64,000 nt of DNA from a virus: positions 1 through 64,000 of the IMG/VR virus record IMGVR_UViG_3300008116_000173. One strand, 5' to 3'. The notes under the pieces were generated by a model that worked only from the letters and a program-made list of their open reading frames with translations, made no database searches and had not been told where the DNA came from. The position numbers were made by a program, and so were the translations under genes. Of the stretch, positions 1,162-59,696 are shown in pieces; position 1 is the first letter of the stretch; each line of letters opens with the position of its first letter.

Positions 1162-4100
1162 TGAAATCTAAATTATTAAAATTAGCAAACGTTAAATCTG
1201 AACAGGAATTTTATAAAAAATATCCTACTGAAGATGCTTTTTTAAAAGCTTTTCCTAAAATGAAAAGTGAACTTAAACAGTTTGCTAATGGTGGACCTGG
1301 TGATGGTGACGGTGATTCTAAACGTAAAACTAAATATCCAGTATTAGATGTTAGTAAAATTAAACCTAAAAGTACTGCTGATAGTGTTATAACATGGGCA
1401 CAATTACCTATTGCTCAAGCAGCTATTGCAAGTAGAATGGCTAAGGGTGAATTTAATAATTTATCAACAGATCAATTAAAAGATTCTGTTAACAATATGT
1501 ATAAAAGTTTTGGTGTTAATCCTGACTTATTATATAATTCAGGTAAAACAATGGATTCAGCATTATCATATTATAAAAATGAAAATGGTGATTACGTAGG
1601 TTTTATACCTAAAGATGCTTATGCTCCTAAAGCTTGGAACCCAGAATATATAACTACTCAAACTAGGTCACAAGCTATGCAATCTTCAAAAGGTAAAAAA
1701 GTAAATTCTGATTTTGCAATAATCAATATTAATGATATAACTGGTGATAAAAAACAAGTAACATTACCTGGTAGAGATAGTGAAAGAATAATTGTATCAT
1801 TAAAAGATAAGGATAAAACTAAACCTTTAATGTTAAAAACAAGAAATGATGCTGCTGAAACTAATCTTTTAAATGCTAATCCAAATTTAACAGGTTGGAA
1901 TACTGTAAAAAATTATTATAATGATCCATCATTTAATCAAGAAATAAATGCACTTTCCCCTACATCAGAAAACCCAAATAATAAAGTAACACGTACTTTT
2001 ACTCCTAACTTTATAATGAAGCAAAGAGCATATGGTGGTTTACAAGAATATGCTGATGGTGGTAAAATAATGAAAGATATTGGTGCTGGTGCTTATGGTA
2101 TTGGTGAAGGTATATTAGATACGGCTACTTTTGGTTTAACAGATCAATTAACTGATAAAGGTTATACAGCTTTGCAAAAAGCTGGTGGTACTACTAATGA
2201 AGAAGAACTTAAACAACAAAATGCTATCCGTGGTGGTGGTAATATTGCAGGTGCTGTAGGCACAGCTATATTTACTGGTGGTGCTACTACGGGTGCTGCT
2301 ATAGGTCAAGGTGCTAAAGGTGCTAATGAAATTGTACAAAACACTAATATAGTTCCTGATGAATATAAACAAACTGCAGGTTCAATAATTAACCTTGCAG
2401 GTATGGCTGGTAGTATGGCTGCTGGTTCACCAAGCTCTTTATCAAATCCTGCAGCAACTCAATTTATGAATAGTAATTTTACACAAGGTGTACAACAAAT
2501 GAATAAATATAAACCTTTTATGAATGCCGTAGGTTTTAGAAACGGTGGTATTCAACAATATGTAGATGGTGGTATGGGACCTAATGCTGAAGTAGAAAAA
2601 CAAGAAAACACAGTAGCTCCTGATGGCACTTTTACACAATATAATGGTCCATCACATGAAGATGGTGGTATAGAAACAACTTTAGATCAAGGTGAAATGA
2701 TATTCTCTGATAAATTAAAACCAATAGGTTCTAAAAAAACATATGCTCAATTAAATAAATCGTTTAATACTCAAAAAGAAGATGAGTTATTAAATGACCC
2801 TAAAACAAATGCTGTACAAAAATTAACAGCTGCAATGATGCGTAGAGCTAAATTAACACAATCTATTGCTTTATTCCAAAACCAAGAACAACAGAAAGAA
2901 GCTAAAGTACAAGCTTATGCTGATAAAATGGGTGTTCCTGTTTTAACTCCTAACAGTCAAGCTGAAGAACAAATGGCTAATGAATCACAAGAAATGGGTG
3001 AAGAAATGCCAATGGCTAGAATGGGTGGTATGATTAAACGTGCTGATGGTAGTTATTCTAAACGTGGTTTATGGGATAATATTAGGGCTAATAAAGGTAG
3101 TGGTAAGAAGCCTACTCCTGAAATGTTAAAACAAGAAGCTAAGATTAAAGCTCAATATGCTATGGGTGGTCCTACTGATCCTCCTTTAACTCCAGAAGAA
3201 CTTAAATGGTTAGCTACAAGCTTAAGAGGAATAGAAAGTGCTAAATATTTATCTGGTCGATATCCTGATAATACCATGCCTGGTGGGACAGCGGACAGAA
3301 TTAAAGAATTAACCGGACCACAAAAACTTCAGTTACAAAAGTATATGCAAAATACTGATGTAATAACAGATATGATAGAAGGTATTACTCCAAATATTGA
3401 ATTTTTTAACCCTAAGCCAAAAAATAGTAAATTAGCTATGGGTGGTATGATATATGCTAATGGTGGTAGTTTTGATAACCCTGGTTTTAAAGCATTACCT
3501 GAAGCTGTACAACAAAAGATTATGGCTAACTATGAAATGGGTGGTATGTTGAAAGATACTGAAATGGATTACACACCTATGGAAGGTGAAGAATACATGG
3601 AGTATAAAAAAGGTGGTATATATATTAAACCTGAAAACCGTGGTAAGTTTAGTGCTGCAGCTAAAAGGGCTGGTATGGGCACACAAGCTTACGCTAAACA
3701 CATTTTAGCTAATAAAGAGAATTATAGTTCAACATTAGTTAAACGTGCTAATTTTGCACGTAATGCAGCTAAATGGCATCATGAAATGGGTGGTTTACAA
3801 CAATTTGCTGAAGCTGGTATGTATGGTGATCCACTTAAACCAGCTTGGCAAACATCATCAACACCTACAGCTGCATCAGCTGGTATTGCTAATCAAGGTA
3901 ATACTTTTGTTGCTTCTTCACCAGTTTCAGAACCTAGAAGAAATCTGCTTGCTATTCGTAAATTAGATGAAAGAACTTTTAATAATAATAAACCATCTAA
4001 TAAATTACTTTCAGGAGAAACAAAGCTTAATTTTGGTCCTAAAATTAAACTTGATGACGATAATTGGTCAAAAAATAATTTAACTTTTAATCCTCTTAAA

Positions 4101-4718
4101 TACAAAGGACAATCTAAATCTGAAGGAGAATCTTTTGATTGGCAAAATGCTGCAGGTATTGCATGTGTAGGCTTATTAAGTAATGCTGGTAATATATATA
4201 ATATTGCACGTGGTTTACAAAAACCTGAAGATTGGCAATATGAACGTGCTACAGCACAGTATTTAGATCCTAGTGCTGATTTAGCTGAAAATGCTAGAAT
4301 GTACCAAGAAGCTAAACGTGCTTCTCAATATGCTTCAGCAGGTAATGCTACTAATTATTTAGCTAATACTGCTGCAGGTAGAGCTGCTAAAATGAATGCT
4401 GATAGACTTGTTAGAACTAATTATAGTAATGCTAATGCTCAGATAGCCAATCAGTTAGGTTTATTTAATACACAAATAGCTAATGCTGAAATGAATGCTA
4501 AACAACAAGATGAAGCACAACGCAGAAATTTAATTGGTCAAGGTATGTCAGGTATTGGTGAAAATGTATTAGGTTTCACAGGTGATTTAATGCGTATGAA
4601 TGCTTATAATAATTACTTTGATAATCCTGACTTTAAAAAAACAACTAAAGGTTTACCTACATTAGGTGGTACTAGATCTAGTACTAGAGGTAGTAGTATA
4701 GGTAAAACAGGTGTATAA
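1161..4718 (+). CDS. Modular virion cargo/ejection protein with ~12 xxGG motifs and Gly/Ala-rich membrane-like segments
   Basis: 1185 aa; AEVEKQE...GPSHEDGGI...IFSDKL block; hydrophobic Gly-rich stretches; lies upstream of the virion RNAP as in crAss-like phages. Confidence 0.6.
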   Translation: MKSKLLKLANVKSEQEFYKKYPTEDAFLKAFPKMKSELKQFANGGPGDGDGDSKRKTKYPVLDVSKIKPKSTADSVITWAQLPIAQAAIASRMAKGEFNNLSTDQLKDSVNNMYKSFGVNPDLLYNSGKTMDSALSYYKNENGDYVGFIPKDAYAPKAWNPEYITTQTRSQAMQSSKGKKVNSDFAIININDITGDKKQVTLPGRDSERIIVSLKDKDKTKPLMLKTRNDAAETNLLNANPNLTGWNTVKNYYNDPSFNQEINALSPTSENPNNKVTRTFTPNFIMKQRAYGGLQEYADGGKIMKDIGAGAYGIGEGILDTATFGLTDQLTDKGYTALQKAGGTTNEEELKQQNAIRGGGNIAGAVGTAIFTGGATTGAAIGQGAKGANEIVQNTNIVPDEYKQTAGSIINLAGMAGSMAAGSPSSLSNPAATQFMNSNFTQGVQQMNKYKPFMNAVGFRNGGIQQYVDGGMGPNAEVEKQENTVAPDGTFTQYNGPSHEDGGIETTLDQGEMIFSDKLKPIGSKKTYAQLNKSFNTQKEDELLNDPKTNAVQKLTAAMMRRAKLTQSIALFQNQEQQKEAKVQAYADKMGVPVLTPNSQAEEQMANESQEMGEEMPMARMGGMIKRADGSYSKRGLWDNIRANKGSGKKPTPEMLKQEAKIKAQYAMGGPTDPPLTPEELKWLATSLRGIESAKYLSGRYPDNTMPGGTADRIKELTGPQKLQLQKYMQNTDVITDMIEGITPNIEFFNPKPKNSKLAMGGMIYANGGSFDNPGFKALPEAVQQKIMANYEMGGMLKDTEMDYTPMEGEEYMEYKKGGIYIKPENRGKFSAAAKRAGMGTQAYAKHILANKENYSSTLVKRANFARNAAKWHHEMGGLQQFAEAGMYGDPLKPAWQTSSTPTAASAGIANQGNTFVASSPVSEPRRNLLAIRKLDERTFNNNKPSNKLLSGETKLNFGPKIKLDDDNWSKNNLTFNPLKYKGQSKSEGESFDWQNAAGIACVGLLSNAGNIYNIARGLQKPEDWQYERATAQYLDPSADLAENARMYQEAKRASQYASAGNATNYLANTAAGRAAKMNADRLVRTNYSNANAQIANQLGLFNTQIANAEMNAKQQDEAQRRNLIGQGMSGIGENVLGFTGDLMRMNAYNNYFDNPDFKKTTKGLPTLGGTRSSTRGSSIGKTGV

Positions 4719-4746
4719 TATTAAAAATAATAATTAACTTTATAAC

Positions 4747-6795
4747 ATGGCAAATAGATTTGACGTAGGTACTCCTCAAAAGTATGTTAGTATATATCCT
4801 TTTCAAGAATTAGCTGCTATAGGTGAAAAACTTAATGCAAGAGCTGGGCAGGCACAACAAAAAATGTCTGCTATTGAAGATGCTATATCTAAAATGGAAG
4901 TAGAAGATCAAGTTATTACTGAAGGTTCTACACTAGGTGATCAATATACTCCTGGAGTTCAATGGGCTAGTACTGGTTATGGTCAATTTAAAAATAATTT
5001 ATTAAATACTGTAAAAACTGCACATGAAGATTTAACAGCTCTTTGGCAAGCAGGTGAAATAAGTATAAGTGATTTAGAACGTCAAAGTAATATATTAAAT
5101 AAAAATATATTAAAAGATTATAATAAATTAAGTTTAGCTGCTGAAAATAGTAAAGTAATTAAAGAAATTAATAAAAAATACCGTGAAAATCAAGATGTAC
5201 CTAATTCACCATTTGTATTAAATACTTTAGCTAAAGCTGGTAGTGAATTTCTTAAAGATCCATTTGCATTAAATTATGTTGGTGCTCCTATAGCTAAATT
5301 ATTAACTGAAATGGATTATGTTAATAAATATGCATCAGGATTTAAAGATAGTGATATTGCACAATTTCAAACTGCTGCTGATAAAAATGGATATATTGAT
5401 TATGGTAAAATAACTGGTGTTACAGCAGATAGAGTAAAAGCAGTTGCTCAAGATGTAGATACTGATCCTGAAATAGGTTCTCAACTTAAACAACAAGCTT
5501 ATAGAGATGTTGCTAACATGATGGATCCTAATAATTCAAACTTTAATGTTGCTGTTCAAAAACAGTATGAAGGTTATAAAAATCAATTTATACAATCTGT
5601 ACTTGCTAAAGCTGTTGGTCAAACTACAACACATAATCTTAAATTTGATAGATTAGGTGAAACTAAAAAGCTTCAAGATGAAATGAATGCTTTACAAGTA
5701 AGTGGTTTAATACCTGGAGATCCGCAAACAATTAATATGGATTCTGCTTTTAAAGATATAACATCTTATAATGATAAAACAAAATCTCATGTTTTAAATA
5801 GAGATCCTTATATAGTTATGCCTGAAGGTTCACGTCAAAGTGGAAATATATTTTTAAATGAACGTGCTGATGTTTCTTTTTTCAAAAATAAAGAAATAAA
5901 TCAACAAAATGAAAAAATTAAAAAACAATTAGCTGATATAGCAATACAATTAAATCAAAAAGCACCTACAAATAAACAAGAAGCTGAAAAATTACTTAAC
6001 GCATATTTAGAAGAAACTAAATATATTCAAGGACAACCAGTAATGGATCCTAAAGAACAAAAAGTAATATCTGAACAATTTAAAAATAATCCTGAAAAAT
6101 TTAGTATTTATGAAGATGGTTATGGTAAAGAAGCTGTTGCTGCTTTAACTCCTGAAGAACGTAAAACATTTAATGCTTTAACACCAGTATCATTTAAATT
6201 AAATAATGGCACATTTATGACTGTTTATAAAGGTTCATACACAGATAAAAATGGTGCTTTAAAACAAATTTATTTAAGAGATATTGATGATACTAAAAAT
6301 TCTTATGTTGATATTTACGCTAACATAAGAAATAATGCAATGAATATTTATCAATCTAATTTTAAAACTAAACTTGAAAATACAAATTCAGAAGAATATA
6401 AAAAATTAAATGCTTTAAATTATAGTTCTCAAGGAGAAAAAATTAAAAAAATTATATCTGGTGCATATGCTGATCAAACAAAATCACTTTTAAAACCTGA
6501 TGCTTTTATAATAAATGATATGCAACAAGATCGTCAAGGTAATATTTATTATACTATTGTTAAAACTAAAGATGATTCTAAATTAGATCAAAAAAATATT
6601 AAAATACCTGATACAGAACAAATAGTATTTAAAATAGTTAATACAGAGCAAGGTCCTACTATGTATCTTGTTGGTAATATATCTCAAGATCTTTATAATT
6701 CTGTTACAAATAGTTATATAAAAACAAAAGCTGGACAATCTAATTTTCCACAAAAAAAATTAACTGAATATGTTAATTTTAACGATAATGATTAA
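4747..6795 (+). CDS. Putative ejection/cargo protein
   Basis: 682 aa, helical; MANRF...YVSIYPFQEL start; adjacent to the RNAP gene. Confidence 0.5.
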   Translation: MANRFDVGTPQKYVSIYPFQELAAIGEKLNARAGQAQQKMSAIEDAISKMEVEDQVITEGSTLGDQYTPGVQWASTGYGQFKNNLLNTVKTAHEDLTALWQAGEISISDLERQSNILNKNILKDYNKLSLAAENSKVIKEINKKYRENQDVPNSPFVLNTLAKAGSEFLKDPFALNYVGAPIAKLLTEMDYVNKYASGFKDSDIAQFQTAADKNGYIDYGKITGVTADRVKAVAQDVDTDPEIGSQLKQQAYRDVANMMDPNNSNFNVAVQKQYEGYKNQFIQSVLAKAVGQTTTHNLKFDRLGETKKLQDEMNALQVSGLIPGDPQTINMDSAFKDITSYNDKTKSHVLNRDPYIVMPEGSRQSGNIFLNERADVSFFKNKEINQQNEKIKKQLADIAIQLNQKAPTNKQEAEKLLNAYLEETKYIQGQPVMDPKEQKVISEQFKNNPEKFSIYEDGYGKEAVAALTPEERKTFNALTPVSFKLNNGTFMTVYKGSYTDKNGALKQIYLRDIDDTKNSYVDIYANIRNNAMNIYQSNFKTKLENTNSEEYKKLNALNYSSQGEKIKKIISGAYADQTKSLLKPDAFIINDMQQDRQGNIYYTIVKTKDDSKLDQKNIKIPDTEQIVFKIVNTEQGPTMYLVGNISQDLYNSVTNSYIKTKAGQSNFPQKKLTEYVNFNDND

Positions 6796-47375: not shown

Positions 47376-47389
47376 AATTTATTTTTTAG

Positions 47390-47457
47390 TAGTCAGGGCA
47401 GGTCCGAGCTGCATCTCTCATCTACTATGATGAGGCGTTACCTTACGCCACCTGACT
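47390..47457 (-). ncRNA. Degenerate tRNA-like element
   Basis: - strand reads AGTCAGG TG GCGT AAGGTA ACGC CTCATC ATAGTA GATGAG AGAT GCAG CTCGGAC CTGC CCTGACT A. This is a cloverleaf with a perfect 7-bp acceptor stem but non-canonical anticodon and T loops. Confidence 0.6.
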
Positions 47458-49397: not shown

Positions 49398-49461
49398 GGT
49401 TATTGTTTTTTAGTTTATGTTAATGAAATATAACATTACGCTATGTAATATTATAATGTGT

Positions 49462-49480
49462 ATGATTATGTATAATTAAT
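49462..49480 (-). promoter_or_regulatory. 19-bp repeated motif, copy 2
   Basis: ATGATTATGTATAATTAAT, intergenic. Confidence 0.45.
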
Positions 49481-49498
49481 GAAAAGTGAAACAGTGGG

Positions 49499-49729
49499 TT
49501 AGAAGACCCACTGCAACACATTAGTACCGTCTGTGTGTAACACAAACTCACCATTCTCATTAACTACAGGTGTAGTACTCTTAGGTTCAAAGTCTGTTAG
49601 TATGTCACCAACAGCATTTCCTGGGTTAGCACACCAAGCAAATGTATAGCCAACGCTATATTTAGATGTTTTAGCACCTACTAACATTGTTTTACCTGTT
49701 TGTGATAATTTAAATACTTTAGCTTCCAT
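49499..49729 (-). CDS. First gene of the leftward (early) block, hypothetical
   Basis: 76 aa, preceded by an A-rich leader typical of Bacteroidota translation starts. Confidence 0.6.
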   Translation of the reverse strand: MEAKVFKLSQTGKTMLVGAKTSKYSVGYTFAWCANPGNAVGDILTDFEPKSTTPVVNENGEFVLHTDGTNVLQWVF

Positions 49730-49840
49730 GATTTTTGTTTTTTAAGGTTTAGGTGGCAGTACTACCCTTCCTGCCAAAGTTTAGTGGGGGTATGTAGTTG
49801 GGGGAGGTCACTAACAACATGCATATAATTTTTCAAAAAA

Positions 49841-50011
49841 ACTAAAGGTAAAGGTCAATGTATTTTAGTAATTGATTATAGTGAGGAGCATGATTTAAAA
49901 TGGGTAGTTATACAGGATGATACAGGTGAGGTATGGGCTTGGCCTAATGATAAGGTTAGGGGTTTTAAGAATGTAACTATGGGTAGAAACAGTGTTAGTA
50001 AAATAAGTTAA
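49841..50011 (+). pseudogene. Start-less or frameshifted small phage gene
   Basis: Open frame TKGKGQCILVIDYSEEHDLKWVVIQDDTGEVWAWPNDKVRGFKNVTMGR...; in-frame TAA at 49826; ATG at 49819 is out of frame by one base across an A7 run. Confidence 0.55.
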
Positions 50012-50018
50012 TTTATAT

Positions 50019-50291
50019 ATGAGCAATGATGAATTTCAAATGAAAGGTTTTTGGGATAAGAAACCTACACAAAGTAAGGTTTTTAAACCTAATGAGATTA
50101 TTGGTTTTTTAATGGTTAATGGCTCTTGGGCTGTTTATTTAAAGGAAGGTGTTAGGCGTAAAAGGTATGTCCAAAACCCTGAGTTTGAAAACTTTACACA
50201 GATTAATCAGGAATTAATTAATTATGAATTATGGCAAAAGTATTATAAGGTTATATTAGGGGTTGATGACTTTAGTCATAACATTGAATAA
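50019..50291 (+). CDS. Hypothetical protein
   Basis: 90-aa ORF. Confidence 0.5.
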   Translation: MSNDEFQMKGFWDKKPTQSKVFKPNEIIGFLMVNGSWAVYLKEGVRRKRYVQNPEFENFTQINQELINYELWQKYYKVILGVDDFSHNIE

Positions 50292-50342
50292 TTTTTTAAT
50301 AATTTATAGCTCATATATCAAAATTTATTGTATATTAATAGT

Positions 50343-50640
50343 ATGGTAAGGGTTAACATTGTTAACATCACCTCTGAGGGCCAAAAGGTAGTTAAGAGGT
50401 CAGACATTGGGTTAGTAGGTATAAATAATACTGAGGTTGTCCCCAATACCTTACAAAAAGGACCTTATAAGGAAAAAGGTAGATAGCTGGAGCACAAGGT
50501 AAAGGTACCCTCCTGAATTAACAGGGTTAAAGCTTCCAGATAGGTTTAAATGACCTAGGGCTAAATACTGATCTACTATAATCCTAAAGGTTAAAATCGC
50601 TTAGTGGTAACATTAAGTCAAAAAAGGCAGTTTCTGCAGG
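50343..50640 (+). ncRNA. Candidate structured noncoding RNA (~300 nt)
   Basis: ORF-free, richer in G/C than its flanks, with about ten nested helices, G-U pairs and a GTAA (GNRA) tetraloop on the + strand. Confidence 0.55.
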
Positions 50641-50702
50641 GGTATGTTTTATCTTAAAAAATATAAGGGATAGTTATATAACATGTGTTATTATATATTA
50701 AA

Positions 50703-50740
50703 TTTGTAAGATATAATAATATATGTTATATTTAACATTA
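50703..50740 (+). promoter_or_regulatory. Candidate late promoter
   Basis: TTTGTAA...TTATATTTAACATTA shared with 58444-58483; resembles the Bacteroidota -33 TTTG / -7 TAnnTTTG layout. Confidence 0.55.
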
Positions 50741-50756
50741 AAAGGGTAAAAGTAAT

Positions 50757-51119
50757 ATGGAATATAAAATACCAGTTAATAGCCAGAATTATTTTAAGGC
50801 TATGCTGACCGTTTTAAATTTTAATTTGAATCTGTCAGAATTGGAAATGGATATACTCTGTGCCATGATGAATAATGGTTTGATAGAGGTAAACATTGAC
50901 ACTAGGGAAATTATTAGGAAGGTGCTTAATAAGGATAAGTTCATGACTAATAATTATATTAAACGATTAAGGAATAAAAATGTACTTTTAGATAAGCCTA
51001 ATGCCAATAGGGTGTATTATATTAATCCAGCTATATTGAACATTATGAATGATATGAAAGTGAGTTTTGAATTTATTATAGCAGATGAAAATAACACAAT
51101 TCAGGATCAGCAAGATTAA
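50757..51119 (+). CDS. Winged-HTH-like protein
   Basis: LSELEMDIL...NNYIKRLRNKNVL...YYINP. Confidence 0.6.
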   Translation: MEYKIPVNSQNYFKAMLTVLNFNLNLSELEMDILCAMMNNGLIEVNIDTREIIRKVLNKDKFMTNNYIKRLRNKNVLLDKPNANRVYYINPAILNIMNDMKVSFEFIIADENNTIQDQQD

Positions 51120-51267
51120 TGAAGAAGACTTTGAAGAAGTACTTAATGAGCTTACAATGGGTTTTAGGAAGTATCGTAATAAAAATGTAGGTTTTAATTA
51201 TACATTGGAGCATGACGATAAGACTATAACTATTAAGTTTGTAGAGTTAGATGAGTCCGTTAATTGA
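51085..51267 (+). CDS. Hypothetical protein
   Basis: 60 aa, overlapping neighbours. Confidence 0.5.
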   Translation: MKITQFRISKINEEDFEEVLNELTMGFRKYRNKNVGFNYTLEHDDKTITIKFVELDESVN

Positions 51268-51505
51268 TGATATATTAAATGAAATGAAAGCTGAATTTGG
51301 GATAACTAAATTTGAGCTTGAAAAAATAATTGACTCCCAGTTTAAGATGCTTGCACAAACTATTGAAAGCAGGGAAGTTAAAGAAGTACATATTAAGAAT
51401 GTAGGTAAATTTAAACCAACAACGTATTTAATAGCTTATAAGGATGGCAGAGTTAAAAGCAAAAATAAAGGAAATAATACAGGGGTGGAAGAATCACCTC
51501 AGTAA
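51251..51505 (+). CDS. HU/IHF-like DNA-binding protein
   Basis: Helical N-terminus followed by VHIKNVGKF. Confidence 0.65.
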   Translation: MSPLIDDILNEMKAEFGITKFELEKIIDSQFKMLAQTIESREVKEVHIKNVGKFKPTTYLIAYKDGRVKSKNKGNNTGVEESPQ

Positions 51506-51734
51506 TCCTTCTGTTGATATAACTAGGTTAGCTGATACAAGGATGCAGTTGTGTGGACGTTGTTCTTTAAACATAGGTAACTTTTGTTCTAAGAATAAGG
51601 AAGGGTATGCTTTAACTAAGTTCATGTATAATGGGGAACAAAGATCCCCAGGTTATAAATACAAAGGGTGTGGTTGTTATTTACCTGCTAAAACCAAATC
51701 ACCAACCTCTTCTTGTCCTTTAGGTAAATGGTGA
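51444..51734 (+). CDS. Cys-rich Zn-binding protein
   Basis: RMQLCGRC...GCGCYLPAKT...CPLGKW. Confidence 0.7.
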   Translation: MAELKAKIKEIIQGWKNHLSNPSVDITRLADTRMQLCGRCSLNIGNFCSKNKEGYALTKFMYNGEQRSPGYKYKGCGCYLPAKTKSPTSSCPLGKW

Positions 51735-51750
51735 TATAAAAGTAAATACT

Positions 51751-52041
51751 ATGAGGTTGCATGAATTTGAAATAATAAGCGATGTTCAGTCAACAACTTC
51801 TAAACCAAAGATATTGACCAAGAACGATAAAATTAAAAAGTTATTTAACCTTGATGAAATAACTGCTGAGGAGTTTATAGATGGTAAGACAGGTAAACAT
51901 GTTAAGAAGTACTGTGTTATACATGATTTAAACAATACAGCATATAAGGTTAATACACCATATGAAACTGTTAAAAATATAATACTTAATAAAACTTTTA
52001 TGGTGCAAGGTTTTGCATCTAAAAGTAAAAATAAAAAATAG
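51751..52041 (+). CDS. Hypothetical protein
   Basis: 96-aa ORF. Confidence 0.55.
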   Translation: MRLHEFEIISDVQSTTSKPKILTKNDKIKKLFNLDEITAEEFIDGKTGKHVKKYCVIHDLNNTAYKVNTPYETVKNIILNKTFMVQGFASKSKNKK

Positions 52042-52043
52042 TT

Positions 52044-52322
52044 GTGAAGATACCTAAGAAATTACAAATACTAGGCAAGACTGTGGTTATACAACAACCA
52101 TGGAGAATTAGTAAGCAAGATCATAGGGGTGAGTTTGATTATATTAAGGGTATTATTAAGGTTAAACGTAGTTTACCTAAAGAAGAAAAAGAAACTATAT
52201 TTTTACATGAATTGACACATGCTGTTTTAGATTATTTAGAATATGATGAGTTGTCAAAAGATGAAAAGTTTGTAGAGCGTTTTTCAAAAGGTTTACATCA
52301 AGCATTAACAACAATGGAATAA
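52044..52322 (+). CDS. Small zincin-like metallopeptidase
   Basis: FLHELTHAVL...DEKFV; GTG start. Confidence 0.8.
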   Translation: MKIPKKLQILGKTVVIQQPWRISKQDHRGEFDYIKGIIKVKRSLPKEEKETIFLHELTHAVLDYLEYDELSKDEKFVERFSKGLHQALTTME

Positions 52323-52323
52323 T

Positions 52324-52554
52324 ATGGAAGAAAATAAAACACTTGAAGAAAAAAACATAATTGAAAAGCATACCTTCGATAAGCAATTTAAACTAAGCGT
52401 AGCTTTAATTGACCTTGAAAATAGGATTAAAGATTTAGACGTTAGAACCAGGGCATTAGAAGAAGCTATGCATTTTTTTGTTCAATGGTATAATGAAAAA
52501 GAAAGAGTAGACATATTGGTGCCAGAGCACTTAAAAGAGTATACGAAAAAATAA
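52324..52554 (+). CDS. Hypothetical coiled-coil protein
   Basis: 76 aa. Confidence 0.5.
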   Translation: MEENKTLEEKNIIEKHTFDKQFKLSVALIDLENRIKDLDVRTRALEEAMHFFVQWYNEKERVDILVPEHLKEYTKK

Positions 52555-52557
52555 TTT

Positions 52558-52878
52558 ATGAGTAAAAAACAGGGCGTAAAAGTAGAAGAAAGTCAAAAAG
52601 GTGTTGTACCCAACCCTAACAAAACCATATCTATGAGTTTATTAGAATCTTATAGAAGGGTATTGTATGAAATAAAGATATTTTTTGACTCTATAGAGTT
52701 TGATAAGATTGAAGAATTAGAACTCAAGATTAAAACCGCTAAGTCTATACTTGATGCTGGCAAAGTATTAGGTGACAATATTAGTTCTTTGGATGTGCTT
52801 GAAGAAAAAGTAAAGCGTGAAGAAAAAGAAAATTCAGTACGCAGAGGTGGTGCTGAAACAAGTATGTTTGAATTGTAA
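52558..52878 (+). CDS. Putative terminase small subunit
   Basis: Helical, ends VRRGGAETSMFE, directly upstream of TerL. Confidence 0.5.
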   Translation: MSKKQGVKVEESQKGVVPNPNKTISMSLLESYRRVLYEIKIFFDSIEFDKIEELELKIKTAKSILDAGKVLGDNISSLDVLEEKVKREEKENSVRRGGAETSMFEL

Positions 52879-52880
52879 AT

Positions 52881-54896
52881 ATGTCATCTAATACACAATA
52901 TGTACCACAGGTAGATAAGTTTGAGAATACCGATGAGTTTAGACAGTTAGCAATACTGTTTGAACAAAAAGGGTATTATACAGATTTACCTAAAGGTACT
53001 CCTCAGTATAAAGAGTTTTGGGTAGAAGAAGATAGGAAATGTAGGTTTGGTGTAACTAATTCAAAAGGGATTAGTATAACAGGTATACATTATTTTTACT
53101 TGAATTATATTCAGATTAAAGCTGAAGATGAATCTACAGGTAGGAAGAAGATGAAGTTCCCAAGATTTTTGGATATTGATTATGATTATTTTCATTTAGT
53201 TGAAGCGTGCAGAAGATTAAAAAAAGGTCTTATATTTTCTAAACCACGACGTACTGGGTTTAGTTATAAGAATGCTGCATTAATGACACATGAATATAAT
53301 TTTTATAGAGATTCTAAATGTGTTATAGGTGCTTATTTAGAACGTTTGTCTACAAACACAATGAACATGGTTTTAGACAATATGAACTTTTTAAATGCCA
53401 ACACAGAATGGCGTAAACAACGTAATCCTGATACAAAGGATTTTGTTAAGTCCAGGTTTGAAGCATCTGTAGATGGTGTTAAAGTGTGGCGTGGTTACAT
53501 GTCTGAAGTAACCAAGTTAACATTTAAAGATAACCCATTTGCATCTGTTGGTTTGAGTGCTAGTGTATTTATATTTGAAGAAGCTGGTACTTTGGTAAAC
53601 CTAAAAGAATCTTATAATATGTCAGAGCCGTGCTGGAAAGATGGTGAGAATATGATAGGTGTACCTATTGTATTTGGTACTGGTGGTGATATGGAAGGTG
53701 GTACAGCAGACTTTGCATACATGTTTAATAACCCAAAACAATATAACTTGTTAGAGTTTACAAATGTGTGGGAAGATGGTAAATCACATACTAGTTGTGG
53801 TTGGTTTATACCAGCTACACGTGGTAGGTTAGGTTTATACAAAAATAAACGCATGGTAGATGTGGATGGTAATTCTGATCAGGAATTAGCATTAGAATCA
53901 ATTATGAGTTTACGTGAAGCTAAAAGATCAGGGCATGATAATAAGGCTTTACAAGATGCTATAACACAGTATCCATTAACACCTAGTGAATCTTTTTTAA
54001 GGAACGCAGGCACAGTATTTTCAAGTATGGAGATGAATGAATGGTTAGCTAAACTTGAAACTACACCTTCTTTAAGGGATGATAAAAAGAAAGTTGAATT
54101 ATACTTTGATACAAATAACAAGCTTAAAGCTAAAATAAACCCAGATCTGCAGGATATTATAAATTATCCTTTGCAGAAGTCAGATAACAAAGAGGGTTGT
54201 GTTGTATTGTATGAGGATCCTGTAGATAACCCACCATTTGGGTTGTATATTGCAGGGTGTGACCCATATGATCAAGATAAAGCACAACACAGTGAATCAT
54301 TAGGTTCATTCTTTGTGTACAAAAGGTTTATGACTAATGCTCATACCTACGATCATATTGTAGCTGAGTATACAGGTAGACCTGAAAGAGCTGATGATTT
54401 TTATGAAACATGCAGACGTTTATGCATATATTACAATGCTAAGTGTTTGTATGAAAACCAGCTTAAAGGTTTAAAAGGTTATTTTGAAATGAAGAACAGC
54501 CTGCATTATTTGTGTGAACAACCACAGATAATTAAGGATATTGTTACTAATTCAAAAGTGAGCAGGGGATATGGTATTCATATGGCTATACAAATTAAAG
54601 ATCAATGTGAATTGTATTTAAAACAATGGTTATATGAAGAACGTGAGGATATAGATGGAAAAAAAATATTAAATTTACATACTATAAAATCTATACCACT
54701 GCTTAAAGAATTAATTACATATGACAGACAAGCTAACACGGATAGAGTTATAGCTTTTATGTTATGTATATTACAATCCAAAGAATTACATAAAATTCAT
54801 TTGGAAGAAACACAACCTAAAACTATTTTAGAAATGGACCCTTTCTTTTCAAAGCGTTTGTTTCAAAAAAATACATACAATAAAATTAAATACTAA
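52881..54896 (+). CDS. terL: Terminase large subunit
   Basis: KPRRTGFSY, FEEAG, FGTGG, AGCDPY, NTDRV; crAss-type. Confidence 0.93.
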   Translation: MSSNTQYVPQVDKFENTDEFRQLAILFEQKGYYTDLPKGTPQYKEFWVEEDRKCRFGVTNSKGISITGIHYFYLNYIQIKAEDESTGRKKMKFPRFLDIDYDYFHLVEACRRLKKGLIFSKPRRTGFSYKNAALMTHEYNFYRDSKCVIGAYLERLSTNTMNMVLDNMNFLNANTEWRKQRNPDTKDFVKSRFEASVDGVKVWRGYMSEVTKLTFKDNPFASVGLSASVFIFEEAGTLVNLKESYNMSEPCWKDGENMIGVPIVFGTGGDMEGGTADFAYMFNNPKQYNLLEFTNVWEDGKSHTSCGWFIPATRGRLGLYKNKRMVDVDGNSDQELALESIMSLREAKRSGHDNKALQDAITQYPLTPSESFLRNAGTVFSSMEMNEWLAKLETTPSLRDDKKKVELYFDTNNKLKAKINPDLQDIINYPLQKSDNKEGCVVLYEDPVDNPPFGLYIAGCDPYDQDKAQHSESLGSFFVYKRFMTNAHTYDHIVAEYTGRPERADDFYETCRRLCIYYNAKCLYENQLKGLKGYFEMKNSLHYLCEQPQIIKDIVTNSKVSRGYGIHMAIQIKDQCELYLKQWLYEEREDIDGKKILNLHTIKSIPLLKELITYDRQANTDRVIAFMLCILQSKELHKIHLEETQPKTILEMDPFFSKRLFQKNTYNKIKY

Positions 54897-54913
54897 CTTA
54901 ATAATAAAGAAAA

Positions 54914-57442
54914 GTGGCTTTACCTATACAAAAGTTACCTTTTAAGAAAAAGGATGATGATTGGAAAAAAGATACTATGGACTACTTTGAACGTATGTCA
55001 TACAGTTCTGTAGCATCTAACCGTACAACCAATTATAATAAAAAAATTAACTATGACCTGTTTAATGGTCGTTTTAACAAAGCTGACTTAGAATATGTTT
55101 GTAATCCTTTAGGGCTTACAGAAAATGAATTCCCAGCTACACTGCAGCATTATGATATTGCATCTCCTTCTCTTAACCTTCTTATAGGTGAAGAAACTAA
55201 AAGGGGTGATAATTTTATAGTAGTTTCAGAAAGTTTAAGCGATATTAATCGTAAACAAGAACAGTTAAAAAATACTATAGTAGCTGCATTACAGCAGAAA
55301 CTAATGGGTGAGATTGATCCAAGTACTATTGATCCTAACAATCCTCCACCCACCCCAGAACAAATTGTTAAATACCAAAAGCATAACATTACAGATCTTA
55401 TAGAGTCACAAGCTAATAAGATACTTAAGTTTTTACGTAAGAATTTAAATACCAAAGAGATATTTAAAAAGGGATGGAAAGATGCTTTAATAGCTGGTGA
55501 AGAAATTTACTGGACAGGTATATCTAATGATGATGTTACACTAAGACGTTGTAACCCATTAAACGTTACTGTAATACTTGATGGTGATACAGATTATGTA
55601 GATGATGCTTTAGCTGTAGTAGAAGTACGTATGTTAGCTCCTGCTAGTATTATTGATGAGTTTGGTAGTGATTTAACACCTGAACAAGTTGAGAAGATTG
55701 AAGCATTATCTAAACGTTTTACATCAGGTTATAACTTAGTTAATAACAGTCCTACATTTACATTAGATAAAACAGCTGGTGTAGTTGATACAGGTTTATC
55801 AAACTTCTCAACAATTAACACTACTGCAGGTGCATTTAATTCTGAATTACTACGTGTAGTACGTGTAGAATGGAAATCATTTAAAAAGCTTTACCATTTG
55901 ACATATTTAGATATGGAAACAGGGTTACCTGTTGAACAAATTGTAGATGAATCTTTTGATATTAAAGTATTTAAAGGTTTTAATGATACTGCTAAGGTTG
56001 AAGAGTTTTGGATTAATGAAGCATGGGAGGGTATTAAGATTGGTGATAGTATTTATGTAAATGTACAACCTAAACCTAATCAACGTAGACGTATGGATAA
56101 CCCATACTATTGTAAATTAGGTTATACAGGTTTAATTTATAATGCTACTAACAGTGTATCAGTATCTCTGTTAGATCGTATTAAACCATATCAATATTTA
56201 TACAACATTATATCTTACAGGTTAGAATTAGCATTTGCTAGTGATCAAGGTAGGATATTCCTTATGGACTTAGCTCAAGTACCTAGGTCTGAAGGTATGG
56301 ATATTGAACGCTGGATGTATTATTTGAAAGCTATGAAGATAGCTTTTATTAACAGCTTTGAAGAAGGTAAAAAAGGTGTAGCTACTGGTAAGTTATCAAA
56401 CTTTAATCAGTTTCAATCTATTGATTTAAGTTTAGCTAATCAAATTAATCAGTATATACAAACTTTAGATTACATTAAATCTCAAGTAGCATTTATCAGT
56501 GGTGTATCACCACAACGTTTAGGTTCTATTAACACAAGTGAACTTGTAGGTAATGTAGAACGTTCAGTAAATCAATCTGCGTTGATTACAGAGTATTTAT
56601 TTGACTCTCATGATGAAGTTAAACGTAGGGTATATATGGCACTTGTAGAATGTGCTAAAATGGCTTATAGGGATGGTAAAAAAGTACAATTTGTACTTGA
56701 TGATATGGGTATAGAATTATTAGATGTACCTGAATTACAACTTGAAAATTCTGAATTTGGTGTTTATATTTCCAATGCTACAAAAGATCAAACAGTTGTT
56801 CAAACGCTTAAACAATTGGCTCAAGCAGCTATTCAGTCTGATAAAGCTGATTTGTCTACTATTATTGACACCATTGTTAATGACAATCCTAGGGACATCA
56901 TTAGGTTGTTACAGAATAATGAGCAGGCTAAACAACAGCGTGATGCACAATCTGCACAGCAACAACAACAAATGCAACAGCAACAGTTAGAAATGCAAAT
57001 GCAGATGAAGCAACAAGAGATGAATCTTAAACAATATGAAGTTGATAGTAATAATCAAACTAAGATTCAGGTTGCTGAGATAAATGCTATGCGTAGTATG
57101 ACAGGTCCTAGTGATGTTAATGAAAACAAAATACCTGATCCTATGGAAGTAGCTAATGCATCATTAAAAGAACGTGAGATAGCATCTAAATCATTTAGTG
57201 AGCAAGCTAAACTAATGCAGGATTCAAATAAACACAATAAACAAATGCAACTTAAAGAAAAAGAGATGCAGATGAAAAAAGATATTGAAGATAAAAAACT
57301 TGAAGCTATTAAAATACAAAATCAAAATCAAATTGAATTAGCTAATAAAAAAGCACAACTTGATAAAGAAATGGCTAATAAAAAACTTGAACTTGAAAAA
57401 TTAAAAATAAAAGCATCAAATAATAATAAAACTAAAAAATAA
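54914..57442 (+). CDS. Portal protein
   Basis: 842 aa after TerL; LPIQKLP start, GVSPQRLG, Gln-rich coiled-coil C-terminus. Confidence 0.9.
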   Translation: MALPIQKLPFKKKDDDWKKDTMDYFERMSYSSVASNRTTNYNKKINYDLFNGRFNKADLEYVCNPLGLTENEFPATLQHYDIASPSLNLLIGEETKRGDNFIVVSESLSDINRKQEQLKNTIVAALQQKLMGEIDPSTIDPNNPPPTPEQIVKYQKHNITDLIESQANKILKFLRKNLNTKEIFKKGWKDALIAGEEIYWTGISNDDVTLRRCNPLNVTVILDGDTDYVDDALAVVEVRMLAPASIIDEFGSDLTPEQVEKIEALSKRFTSGYNLVNNSPTFTLDKTAGVVDTGLSNFSTINTTAGAFNSELLRVVRVEWKSFKKLYHLTYLDMETGLPVEQIVDESFDIKVFKGFNDTAKVEEFWINEAWEGIKIGDSIYVNVQPKPNQRRRMDNPYYCKLGYTGLIYNATNSVSVSLLDRIKPYQYLYNIISYRLELAFASDQGRIFLMDLAQVPRSEGMDIERWMYYLKAMKIAFINSFEEGKKGVATGKLSNFNQFQSIDLSLANQINQYIQTLDYIKSQVAFISGVSPQRLGSINTSELVGNVERSVNQSALITEYLFDSHDEVKRRVYMALVECAKMAYRDGKKVQFVLDDMGIELLDVPELQLENSEFGVYISNATKDQTVVQTLKQLAQAAIQSDKADLSTIIDTIVNDNPRDIIRLLQNNEQAKQQRDAQSAQQQQQMQQQQLEMQMQMKQQEMNLKQYEVDSNNQTKIQVAEINAMRSMTGPSDVNENKIPDPMEVANASLKEREIASKSFSEQAKLMQDSNKHNKQMQLKEKEMQMKKDIEDKKLEAIKIQNQNQIELANKKAQLDKEMANKKLELEKLKIKASNNNKTKK

Positions 57443-57447
57443 AAACA

Positions 57448-57981
57448 ATGGCTTTAGATATAAACAGTTTTAAAAAACAAAATACAGGTAAAAATCCTAT
57501 GATATCTGATGAGGTAATCAGTTATTTAAACATGCGTATTGAACAAGAAGAGTTATCTTCAAGGATGTATTTATCCATGAGTATGTGGTTAAATAACAAA
57601 GGTTATACTGGCGCAGCATCTTTATGGAAAAAATATTCACAAGAAGAATTAGCACATTCTGATTGGTCACGTGAATATTTATTAGCTATGGGTGTTCAAC
57701 CTGATACTCCTGCTTTAAAATCACCTTCACAAAATTATCAAGGTTTACCTCAAATTATTAAACTTTCATATGAACATGAAATAACTATTACTAAGCAATG
57801 TAAAGAATTAGCTAGTAACGCTATGAAAAAAGGTGATTTTATGTTATTTGAATTAGCTGGTAAATTTTTAAAAGAGCAAATTGAAGAACATGATAAGATG
57901 CAAAACTGGATGGATAAGTTAGATGCTTTTGGTACAGATCAAATTGCTCTGCGTCTTTTAGATAATGAAATGGCTGGATAA
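57448..57981 (+). CDS. Ferritin (FtnA-like)
   Basis: EELSSRMY, EELAH, HEITIT, EQIEEH ferroxidase residues. Confidence 0.85.
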   Translation: MALDINSFKKQNTGKNPMISDEVISYLNMRIEQEELSSRMYLSMSMWLNNKGYTGAASLWKKYSQEELAHSDWSREYLLAMGVQPDTPALKSPSQNYQGLPQIIKLSYEHEITITKQCKELASNAMKKGDFMLFELAGKFLKEQIEEHDKMQNWMDKLDAFGTDQIALRLLDNEMAG

Positions 57982-57995
57982 TAATAAATAAAACA

Positions 57996-58406
57996 ATGAT
58001 TGATATAAACAAACCAATAGGACAACCAAAAGGTAAATCCTCAAGTAAAGCTGAAGAGTTTTTTGGTAAACTTTTCCAATTAAGAGATCAAATTCATCTC
58101 ACCCATCTCAAAGTATCAGGACCAGGATCATATGCTGCCCATAAGGCTTTAAATGAGTTTTATGATGGGTTATTGGATCATATTGATACTTTAATTGAAA
58201 GTTATCAAGGTAAATATGGTATTATTACTGTAAATATACCTGCTTCATCTGCAGTAGAACCTGAAATGGCACTTGAAATGTTAGCTAAATTAACTGATGA
58301 TGGTAATGCATACATTATGTTCAAAGAAACATGGATACAAAACCAAATTGATGAAATTAGTACGTTAACATACCAAACTTTATACAAACTGAAAAACCTG
58401 GCATAA
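57996..58406 (+). CDS. Ferritin/Dps-like four-helix protein (DUF5856-like)
   Basis: HLTH...SYAAHKALNEFYD...D.LIESYQGKYG...NQIDEI...TLYKL. Confidence 0.75.
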   Translation: MIDINKPIGQPKGKSSSKAEEFFGKLFQLRDQIHLTHLKVSGPGSYAAHKALNEFYDGLLDHIDTLIESYQGKYGIITVNIPASSAVEPEMALEMLAKLTDDGNAYIMFKETWIQNQIDEISTLTYQTLYKLKNLA

Positions 58407-58443
58407 TAAAACGCCATATGTTTTATTACGTATTTTAGAAAGT

Positions 58444-58483
58444 TTTGTAAATTATATAACAAGAAGTATTATATTTAACATTA
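58444..58483 (+). promoter_or_regulatory. Candidate late promoter for scaffold/MCP
   Basis: TTTGTAA...TTATATTTAACATTA, matching 50703-50740. Confidence 0.55.
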
Positions 58484-58490
58484 TAACAAC

Positions 58491-59696
58491 ATGGCAAAAA
58501 GTAAAAGTACAGAAGAAACAGCAGGAACAAGTCCTTTTGGAGGGTTTAAAATTCTACAAGGTGAATTTCCACCCCCACCTGCAACTGATGATATTCAGGA
58601 TGGTGATGATGTAGCATTAGTTGATAAAACTGATGATGCAGAAGAAGAACAAACTGATGATCAAAAGCAAAGGATGCTTGAAGCTGACAAGAAGCTAGAA
58701 AAAGTAGCTGAAAAAGCAGCTAAAAATTCTAAAAAAACTGAAGATGTTGCTCAAGATGAAACAGATGAAGAAGCTGAAGATGAAGTTGAAGATGATACTG
58801 ATACTGATAATCTGGCAGATGAGTCTGATGATGACAACACTGAGTCACCGCTCAAAGAATTTGCTAAATCTCTTTACAACAAAGGGGTTTTGGATTTTGA
58901 TGATAGTGATGAAGAGTTTGAAGACAGTGAAGAAGGTCTTGAAAAACTGGTTAACAAGACTGTAGAAAACAGGATTAATGATTGGGTATCCAATTTACCT
59001 GATGAATACAGTAAATTTTTAGAGTTTGTTCAAAATGGTGGTCAACCTAAAGATTTCCTTAATGTATATTACGGTAATCACTCTTGGGAAAACTACAAAG
59101 TAGAAAATGAAAGTCAACAAATAGTAGCTGTTGAAGAGTCCCTAAGACTTACAGGTGAAACTGAAGAAGATATTAGGGATATGGTTGAAGAATGGCGTGA
59201 TAATGGTACTTTAGAAAAACGTGCTAAATCAGCTTTAACTAAACTTCAACGTATAGAAGCAAGTCAAAAACAAGAACTTGTAGAAATACAAAAACAACAA
59301 GCTGCAAAACAAAAAGCTGCACAAAAACAATACTGGGATAATTTTAAAAACAGTTTGTTTGAACGTGAAGACATTAAAGGGTTTAAATTAACTCCTAAAA
59401 TGAAAGAACAGCTTTGGCATCATATGACTGCTATAGATAAGTCCACTGGTAAAACAGGTTATCAGATGGCAGTAGAGCAGGATAATGAAGCTTCACTGTT
59501 GTTTGCTTTACAATCAATGTTAGGTTTTGACATTAAGAAACTTGAAAAACAAGTTGAAAGTAAAGTAAGTAACAAATTCAGCAAAATGCTGAAAAATTAC
59601 AATAAATCATCTAAAGAGAAAATTTCTTCAGGTGGTACACAAGATTTTGGTGGTGGGAATAATCCATTCTCAGGCTTTAAATCTGTTAAACTTTGA
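58491..59696 (+). CDS. Acidic scaffold-like protein
   Basis: Asp/Glu-rich N-terminal half; directly upstream of the MCP, as in crAss-like phages. Confidence 0.7.
   Translation: MAKSKSTEETAGTSPFGGFKILQGEFPPPPATDDIQDGDDVALVDKTDDAEEEQTDDQKQRMLEADKKLEKVAEKAAKNSKKTEDVAQDETDEEAEDEVEDDTDTDNLADESDDDNTESPLKEFAKSLYNKGVLDFDDSDEEFEDSEEGLEKLVNKTVENRINDWVSNLPDEYSKFLEFVQNGGQPKDFLNVYYGNHSWENYKVENESQQIVAVEESLRLTGETEEDIRDMVEEWRDNGTLEKRAKSALTKLQRIEASQKQELVEIQKQQAAKQKAAQKQYWDNFKNSLFEREDIKGFKLTPKMKEQLWHHMTAIDKSTGKTGYQMAVEQDNEASLLFALQSMLGFDIKKLEKQVESKVSNKFSKMLKNYNKSSKEKISSGGTQDFGGGNNPFSGFKSVKL

Follow-up and report, generated by a model that had tools for sequence, protein, structure and literature searches.

An uncatalogued family of large structured RNAs ahead of the packaging genes of crAss-like phages, a possible cis-acting leader

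We here describe a structured RNA encoded by a virus whose DNA was analysed as a window of 64,000 nucleotides (nt), positions 1 to 64,000 of the 72.5-kb linear record IMGVR_UViG_3300008116_000173 of IMG/VR. The RNA lies on the + strand at 50343-50656, upstream of the genes for DNA packaging, and we consider it practically beyond doubt that this structured RNA is real and non-coding, measures about 310 nt, has two domains and a constant 3′ motif (GAAGGGGAA...UGUC), and belongs to an uncatalogued family. As to its function, we favour, tentatively, the reading that it is a cis-acting leader conditioning the host RNA polymerase for the long packaging and virion operon. The preliminary description of the window had proposed that a structured phage RNA of several domains and unrecognised type lies ahead of the packaging operon, and covariation, conserved gene order, a conserved promoter, the lack of a match in Rfam and contigs from RNA libraries all bear this out.

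The folding energy of the + strand (−78.9 kcal/mol, z = −2.24) was equalled by 2 of 200 shuffled sequences and that of the − strand (z = −1.01) by 35 of 200. Such a comparison with shuffles had been suggested as a check of the fold; its outcome is favourable, and by itself modest evidence, the decisive evidence being comparative. The stretch is conserved at the DNA level in phages whose large terminase subunits (TerL) are only 51-55% identical (loci fetched by way of the terminase), and its predicted pairs were changed on both sides at 34 of 70 positions in an alignment of 7 sequences and at 29 of 40 in one of 16. The main test used a covariance model, R1, which covers only the core of the RNA (50365-50601, 237 positions) and scores the core of the window at 217.5 bits (E = 3e-51). 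When 37 R1 matches, comprising 36 distinct rows, were aligned and compared with 500 shuffles by five measures, 95.7% of the pair cells held standard pairs, as against 70.1% in the shuffles and 27-48% when the pairing partner was slid; 33 of the 40 core pairs were changed on both sides, and none of the 500 shuffles reached the alignment in any of the five measures. Covariation among related crAss-like loci, also named beforehand as a check, was thus found. A search of the core columns for additional covarying helices (31 rows) returned only the known nested ones and no long-range helix of three or more pairs; a list of single covarying pairs, in which common descent dominates, was set aside. 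One element of the preliminary description did not survive, namely a pseudoknot between GAGGG (50376-80) and CCCTC (50508-12), whose cells are paired in 57.1% of cases compared with 59.1% in shuffles; CCCTC belongs to two local covarying hairpins.

Certain G-U pairs are invariant, or are the commonest pair type at their place, on the + strand, and these set the RNA strand as +, in agreement with the strand first proposed. The region had also been described as an island free of open reading frames (ORFs), and no conserved ORF was found in it: under genetic code 11 the median length of the longest open run is 33 codons for the + strand and 42 for the − strand, or 37-57 with TAG or TGA read as sense, and the core lengths (231, 233, 234, 235, 236, 237, 238 and so on) differ in steps that are not multiples of three. 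These short open runs and out-of-frame length changes rule out a protein-coding gene, including one with recoded stop codons.

The helices listed in the preliminary description were all recovered at their places in the sequence, in the minimum-free-energy fold and among the consensus helices mapped onto the window, from which the following coordinates are taken.

50343-50656, + strand: structured RNA of about 310 nt, a conserved alignment block in which conservation reaches as far as the 3′ motif near 50650
50346-50454, + strand: domain 1, a four-way junction closed by helix P1
50346-51/50449-54, + strand: helix P1, GTAAGG/CCTTAC
50352-57/50361-66, + strand: helix P2, the variable hairpin GTTAAC-ATT-GTTAAC at 50352-66
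50370-75/50395-400, + strand: helix P3, ACCTCT/AGAGGT
50406-11/50442-47, + strand: helix P4, ATTGGG/CCCAAT, with an invariant GUCCCC side and a variable tip
50412-17/50429-34, + strand: inner stem of helix P4, TTAGTA/TACTGA
50455-50598, + strand: A-rich linker (AGAAACAGAC in most relatives) and domain 2
50471-73/50582-84, + strand: helix P5
50479-84/50571-76, + strand: helix P6, GTAGAT/ATCTAC
50487-93/50532-39, + strand: helix P7, CTGGAGC/GCTTCCAG
50497-99/50509-11, + strand: helix P7a, one of twin hairpins
50512-15/50522-25, + strand: helix P7b, CCTG/CAGG, the other of the twin hairpins
50541-45/50553-57, + strand: helix P8, TAGGT/ACCTA
50557-72, + strand: conserved single-stranded block AGGGCUAAAUACUGAU, consensus AGGGCU.AA.ACU.AU
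50599-50618, + strand: helix P9, a peripheral hairpin capped by a GNRA loop (GUAA at 50607-10)
50627-37, + strand: small hairpin GCAG-UUU-CUGC
50637-48, + strand: 3′ motif in the window variant CAGGGGUAUGUU, with GGGG at 50639-42

The 5′ end of the RNA would lie at about 50343-50346. In helix P1, the pair types GC, GU and AU occur at three of five pairs, with two-sided changes at two (7-sequence alignment). Of all the elements, helix P2 is conserved least, and the relatives L032 and L034 lack it. Among the 36 rows, five of the six pairs of helix P3 and three of the six of helix P4 were changed on both sides, and in L032 a G-to-C change in helix P4 is matched by a C-to-G swap. The six helices of domain 2 (helices 3-8 of the model) are 88-100% paired, and every variable pair in them (3, 6, 5, 3, 3 and 5, respectively) was changed on both sides. 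Helix P9, with eight pairs of which four show two-sided changes and with a GUAA or GUGA loop in 7 of 7 sequences, is kept in the subgroup of the window; L051, L053 and L054 lack it, and in the L077 group it takes another form. No block of the family is more constant than the 3′ motif, in which GAAGGGGAA is followed by 4-5 bases and (A/G)UGU(C/U); of 31 3′ flanks, 30 contain [AG]AGGGG[AT], and only the window deviates, with C first. The motif was also considered as a repeated regulatory site and rejected as such, all its other copies in the window lying inside genes and none between them. In L006 (2271-2467), a relative 91% identical to the window, 41 nt of domain 2 are gone (P7a, P7b and parts of both strands of P7), which represents either a tolerated natural deletion or a dead copy.

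The family has members among viral and metagenome contigs. At E < 1e-3, R1 matched 14 of 84 loci derived from TerL or from a pattern (two weak rows were taken as chance). Hairpin-pattern scans yielded 37 loci in viral contigs, of which R1 matched 20, and 24 in metagenome contigs, of which it matched 17; over 206 loci, nhmmer found 82 positive loci with 44 distinct core sequences. The RNA is present in one copy per genome in the window's own record and in five of five related records. Rfam 15 (4227 models, including group I introns, RNase P, tmRNA, 6S, pRNA, GOLLD, ROOL, HEARO, raiA and riboswitches) gave no match in the window at the gathering threshold, only two chance-level rows (E 3.1 and 8.2) on 50200-50800 when E up to 10 was allowed, and on eight related loci only two tRNAs, located elsewhere; the Rfam search suggested in the preliminary description therefore leaves the novelty of the RNA standing. 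Neither blastn of 50300-50760 nor tblastn of the neighbouring protein F1 (see below) of the window and of L077 matched GenBank phages, and we found no cultured phage among them that carries the module, by DNA or by F1. Two scans of 185,579 bacterial and archaeal species genomes gave 0 and 20 stretches and no R1 member among the 20, the scan pattern being narrow enough that absence from cellular genomes is not proven; six of the 20 have partial R1 matches (E 0.003-0.058), five of which are confined to the hairpin on which the scan was based, while the sixth (L165) extends over model positions 88-220 of 237 at 20.9 bits. No description of the RNA was found in the full-text literature searched, including passages of PMC10212125 and bioRxiv 10.64898/2026.10.21.760802, and supplementary candidate lists (e.g. 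PMC8040213) could hold related motifs. The family is thus new to Rfam and to the literature searched.

A general feature of the family is its constant setting. In the window the RNA occupies the intergenic region 50292-50756, flanked by the ORFs F0 and F1, both on the + strand, and the order along one strand is F0, a Bacteroidota-type promoter, the RNA, an AT-rich palindrome, a second promoter, F1, small ORFs and TerL. The elements around the RNA in the window, and genes inserted behind it in relatives, are the following.

50019-50291, + strand: F0, 90 amino acids, a conserved gene upstream of promoter P1
50303-50338, + strand: promoter P1, with the −7 box TATATTAA at 50331-38 and a degenerate −33 element, ATAG, at 50306-09
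50360, + strand: contig start in three RNA libraries (X7, X8 and X10), inside the loop of helix P2
50673-50735, + strand: AT-rich inverted repeat and promoter P2, with ATAACA 50678-83 / TGTTAT 50686-91 and further GTTAT half-sites
50703-50734, + strand: promoter P2 for F1, TTTG at 50703-06, 20 bases, and TATATTTA at 50727-34 (pattern match 50703-50733)
50757-51119, + strand: F1, 120 amino acids, predicted MarR/SarA-like winged-helix protein, the first gene after the RNA in most members
52881-54896, + strand: TerL (phrog_6681, E = 1.3e-141), about 2.2 kb downstream of the RNA
L037:5064-5498 (− strand), L046:4579-5034 and L055:1516-2067: DUF559-type endonuclease genes directly after the RNA (Pfam E 3.6e-8 to 1.7e-10)

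The slot and the orientation of the RNA are identical in all 38 loci examined, which form three sets. A homologue of F0 lies upstream in 10 of 10, 17 of 21 and 5 of 7 loci, cut contigs accounting for part of the absences, and a homologue of F1 follows on the same strand in 10 of 10, 21 of 21 and 6 of 7, the sole miss (37 of 38 positive) being a contig of 1.3 kb. TerL is found 2.1-3.8 kb 3′ of the RNA in every locus whose contig extends far enough, and the + strand gene block that begins at the RNA is tens of kilobases long. The genes of this phage are without Shine-Dalgarno sequences and have A-rich leaders, which fits a Bacteroidota host, since genes of Bacteroidota are expected to have just these features.

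The promoter-like site noted just 5′ of the RNA in the preliminary description, TGTATATTA, forms the −7 box of a promoter that is conserved among the relatives. The pattern TT[TA]G-N18-21-TAnnTT is present in 28 of 31 aligned 5′ flanks, and its strict TTTG form in 20 of 31; where the relatives carry TTTG or TTAG the window has the −33 variant ATAG, owing to which it is among the three misses. We take this motif to be the Bacteroidota sigma-A consensus (−33 TTTG, −7 TAnnTTTG). Behind the RNA, 20 of 31 members have, no more than 110 nt from the core, a palindrome followed by TTTG-N-TAnnTT, one extra match (L007) that overlaps the 3′ motif being discounted. In the window GTTAT half-sites surround the −33 element of promoter P2, and most relatives have a palindrome of the ATAACTAAGTTAGTTAT type with GTTAT/ATAAC half-sites, which is likely to be an operator, as yet putative, of the MarR-like F1. 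In L077, L134, L140 and their relatives the −7 box of promoter P2 ends about 4 bases before the ATG of F1, so that, judged from the sequence, the F1 mRNA would be leaderless or nearly so in this subgroup; in the window its leader is about 17 nt. A sigma-70 promoter scan did no better than shuffles (53 found, 52.9 expected), and a loose Bacteroidota-type pattern gave 37 matches where 25.3 were expected, promoter P2 being the only one of them in this region. A terminator scan not tuned to Bacteroidota found no terminator-like site on the + strand of 49400-59000 and no G+C-rich terminator after the RNA.

Some members have an additional ORF between the RNA and F1, which encodes a DUF559 endonuclease, a Cpn10-like protein or a protein of no assigned kind. 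No P2-like motif separates the RNA from the ORF that follows it in L007, L037 and the L057/L153 type, and this ORF must therefore be transcribed through the RNA. From their sequences, the DUF559 genes look like free-standing homing endonucleases that use a conserved RNA gene as a landing site. In L112 a Cpn10/GroES-like gene stands directly after the RNA, in the same place as the DUF559 insertions.

Sequences from RNA libraries are consistent with transcription across the region. Ten runs recorded as RNA contain at least half of the sampled words of 49500-52000, and four metatranscriptome runs (X7, X8, X10 and X11) were compared as contigs, at a resolution that does not extend to single transcripts, their ends or their levels. 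Contigs of X7, X8 and X10, the studies behind which may be one campaign, start at 50360 and extend to 50761, 52930 and 54000, bridging the RNA into F1 and beyond, and an X11 contig starts at 50431. In X7, 23 loose letters directly precede 50360, which we take to be Illumina adapter and which would then mean that many fragments end there. Together these contigs give a weak hint of a discrete 5′ end at 50360 and of read-through into the genes, carry-over of DNA into the libraries being possible. Position 50360 lies about 15-17 nt after the start expected from the promoter, and the primary transcript should begin before 50346 because helix P1 covaries; the offset could thus be either a library effect, loss of the first 15-20 bases of a transcript being a common one, or a processing site. 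The region 49608-50359 is uncovered by the X8, X10 and X11 contigs, with a thin X7 contig at 50005-50254, missing cover of this kind being no evidence either way, and in X7 the contig-mean depth is 26.8 for the RNA contig and 17.6 for the next, figures that do not rank expression. Further upstream, at 49405-49462, contigs in each of the four runs either stop or diverge. Loose ends lie at 49410, 49426 and 49461-62, 13 bases (49411-49425) are skipped in X7, and X10 has TTT inserted after 49405. This pattern suggests strain variants, or a repeat within the leftward block of genes.

In two close relatives of the window, with TerL 71-72% and F1 61% and 42% identical, the place between the same type of promoter and the palindrome, promoter P2 and F1 is taken by another RNA that looks structured, about 215 nt long (L042:1522-1745 and L014:1925-2150). 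This RNA ends in the pyrimidine-rich CUUUCUCUU instead of GAAGGGGAA; 9 of its 42 predicted pairs are changed on both sides, in a comparison of two sequences only. It has no match in Rfam, and a pattern scan found just those two contigs. Such a swap of one RNA for another, with promoter, palindrome, P2 and F1 constant around it, would suit a role that goes with the slot, and it suggests a class of exchangeable leader RNAs that the catalogues have overlooked. In addition, a complete crAss-like genome with no R1 match has a G-rich non-coding stretch upstream of its F1 homologue (L185:1960-2140, − strand) that contains AAGGGGAAUCACAC; it resembles the 3′ motif of the family and may be a far-diverged or a different RNA.

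How, then, might the RNA act? In the reading that we favour, the host RNA polymerase would start at the Bacteroidota-type promoter about 5 bases before helix P1, pass the end of the fold and continue into the block from F1 to TerL. Being promoter-proximal, the fold would act in cis on the polymerase or the transcript that made it, either by making elongation through the packaging and virion operon resistant to termination or by marking the transcripts of promoter P1 as distinct from those of promoter P2, which, behind its operator-like palindrome, is probably controlled by the MarR-like F1. The start site, the read-through in a single transcript, the effect on the polymerase and the binding of F1 to the palindrome are what we infer. 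A cis-acting leader is favoured because the position and orientation of the RNA do not vary, a promoter precedes helix P1, no terminator was detected behind the fold, some ORFs must be transcribed through it, and contigs bridge it and the genes. Among the functions offered in the preliminary description a late-switch regulator comes closest to such a leader, and a packaging RNA or a sponge received no support. A more specific form of the idea is that the RNA is a self-sufficient, RNA-driven processive antiterminator of a new structural class, in phages of Bacteroidota, exchangeable with the L042/L014-type RNA in the same slot between promoter and operator. This we regard as possible and rather doubtful; if true, the RNA would ride on its own polymerase and render it resistant to termination over tens of kilobases of packaging and virion genes.

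Several observations weigh against a cis-acting leader. The contigs cannot show one continuous transcript, its ends or its level. In most members, the window included, a promoter of its own stands between the RNA and F1 (20 of 31 within 110 nt), and since promoter P2 intervenes the genes would be independent of promoter P1 and the RNA looks like a separate unit. The RNA antiterminators known to date, put with about 70 nt and EAR with about 120 nt, are much smaller than this RNA, and no terminator that would need to be overridden was found in the operon by the scan described above, which was not tuned to Bacteroidota. The 91% identical L006 does without 41 nt of domain 2. Furthermore, R1 matched none of five complete crAss-like genomes whose TerL is 40-49% identical, so that the device must be dispensable or replaceable; two of these five still have a homologue of F1, with other sequence upstream, and F1 is therefore not tied to this type of RNA.

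Nearly as likely as a cis-acting leader, and itself a possibility that we hold with reserve, is a stand-alone, stable RNA made from promoter P1 and perhaps trimmed, which would act in trans as a scaffold, a decoy or a self-assembling particle, an orphan in the manner of ROOL and GOLLD. Its own conserved promoter with a second promoter behind make it a separable unit, it is single-copy, its complex two-domain fold has many invariant unpaired bases besides the constant 3′ motif, and relatives swap in another RNA as they would an exchangeable cargo gene; the end at 50360 could, weakly, be counted as a processing site. However, one would then expect a terminator or a conserved 3′-end signal after the fold, and none was found, while the RNA contigs bridge into the genes, the ORF of some members relies on transcription through the RNA, and a gene acting in trans would have no need of a position and orientation that are constant in 38 loci. 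It could also be that the RNA is a sensor leader, a riboswitch or protein-binding element that binds a metabolite, a tRNA or a protein and sets expression via the purine-rich GAAGGGGAA...(A/G)UG. We think this unlikely. It would suit the placement as a 5′ leader, the invariant unpaired blocks and the Shine-Dalgarno-like GGGG that stands 4-6 bases before AUG or GUG in most members, in a genome otherwise without such sites, and, as read from the sequence, GGGGA could pair with the invariant UCCCC/UCUCC of helix P4 to form an alternative helix. Yet the short frames after the motif have only 2-12 codons and no conserved product, 3 of 21 aligned members, namely the window, L006 and L032, lack the start codon, promoter P2 separates the motif from F1, and the change in helix P4 of L032 is compensated inside P4 and not by the 3′ motif. 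No alternative covarying pairing, nor one of terminator/antiterminator type, was found, the 3′ motif being invariant and covariation there uninformative.

A self-cutting or self-processing ribozyme, with the end at 50360 as its cleavage product, had also been named beforehand, and our results neither support nor contradict it; we rate it as quite improbable. The size of the RNA and its many invariant junction bases are like those of catalytic RNAs, and the contig start inside the loop of helix P2 is sharp in three RNA runs, but a conserved cleavage site is unlikely in a helix that varies more than any other element and that L032 and L034 do without, no ribozyme family in Rfam matches, and the common loss of 15-20 bases at transcript starts could account for such an end. 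Least probable of all is a signal at the DNA level, such as a pac or cos site or a replication origin beside the terminase genes. The region is indeed upstream of the terminase operon and adjoins an AT-rich palindrome and the gene of a winged-helix protein; nevertheless, pairing is kept by way of G-U pairs, which are A-C mismatches on the other strand, covariation is strand-specific, the promoter is conserved, and a DNA site would keep its sequence rather than its pairing. Finally, a group I intron was considered and rejected: F0 and F1 are separate genes in all relatives, a promoter lies between F0 and the fold, and F1 has its own promoter and start codon.

With regard to the neighbouring genes, the families of F0 and F1 were not found in Pfam or PHROG. 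The assignment of F1 as a MarR/SarA-like winged-helix protein rests on an AlphaFold2 model (predicted local distance difference test 88.8) that takes the form of a winged helix, on Foldseek, whose best matches are MarR-family chains and weak (E 4.5e-3, TM 0.45-0.5), and on a profile search that matched 3r0a at E = 1.4e-3. The best matches of TerL in GenBank phages are crAss-like phages, at 36-38% identity. In L032 the terminase is split into two ORFs of 130 and 519 amino acids (3322-3714 and 3808-5367 from the start of the RNA), which could reflect a frameshift, an intron or an assembly error. Elsewhere in the window, ARAGORN reported an odd tRNA-like gene at 47389-47457 on the − strand (called 'tRNA-???', anticodon undetermined, loop read 'ag') and made no other tRNA or tmRNA call.

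The present family adds to the few large structured phage RNAs one that is well supported, with 44 distinct sequences, 33 of 40 pairs covarying and presence in RNA libraries. Few phages of Bacteroidota are as abundant as the crAss-like phages, and we know of no account of how they drive the host polymerase through their very long late operons. A folded, conserved RNA that follows a host promoter at the entry to such an operon offers a concrete candidate for its control, and one that can be tested.

Among known systems, the pRNA of phi29 (RF00044) is likewise a structured phage RNA with a positional link to DNA packaging, but its Rfam model is unmatched here and nothing ties our RNA to the portal; to our knowledge, phi29-type packaging uses no small and large terminase pair of the kind found here. 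ROOL (RF03087) and GOLLD (RF01998) are, like the RNA described here, large, multi-domain and strongly covarying phage RNAs of unknown function; they are two to three times larger, however, and typically lie near tRNA genes, neither model matches, and the RNA of this study is fixed before the packaging genes. In the late leader of lambdoid phages, which consists of PR′, a short '6S' leader, tR′ and the Q protein, a host promoter and leader similarly stand at the entry to the late and packaging genes with a small regulator gene nearby, whereas the lambda leader is without an intricate conserved fold and needs Q and a terminator; here no terminator was found and F1 is MarR-like, not Q-like. The elements putL and putR of HK022 and EAR of Bacilli differ in size (about 70 and about 120 nt, as against about 310 nt), and have no counterpart in an Rfam match here; the present RNA is followed by the internal promoter P2, and antitermination by it would be an analogy drawn from them. 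They are nevertheless the precedent that fits best, being in the same manner folded RNAs behind a host-type promoter at the head of a long operon, with which they are co-transcribed, as the present RNA may be, and put, like our RNA, is carried by a phage.

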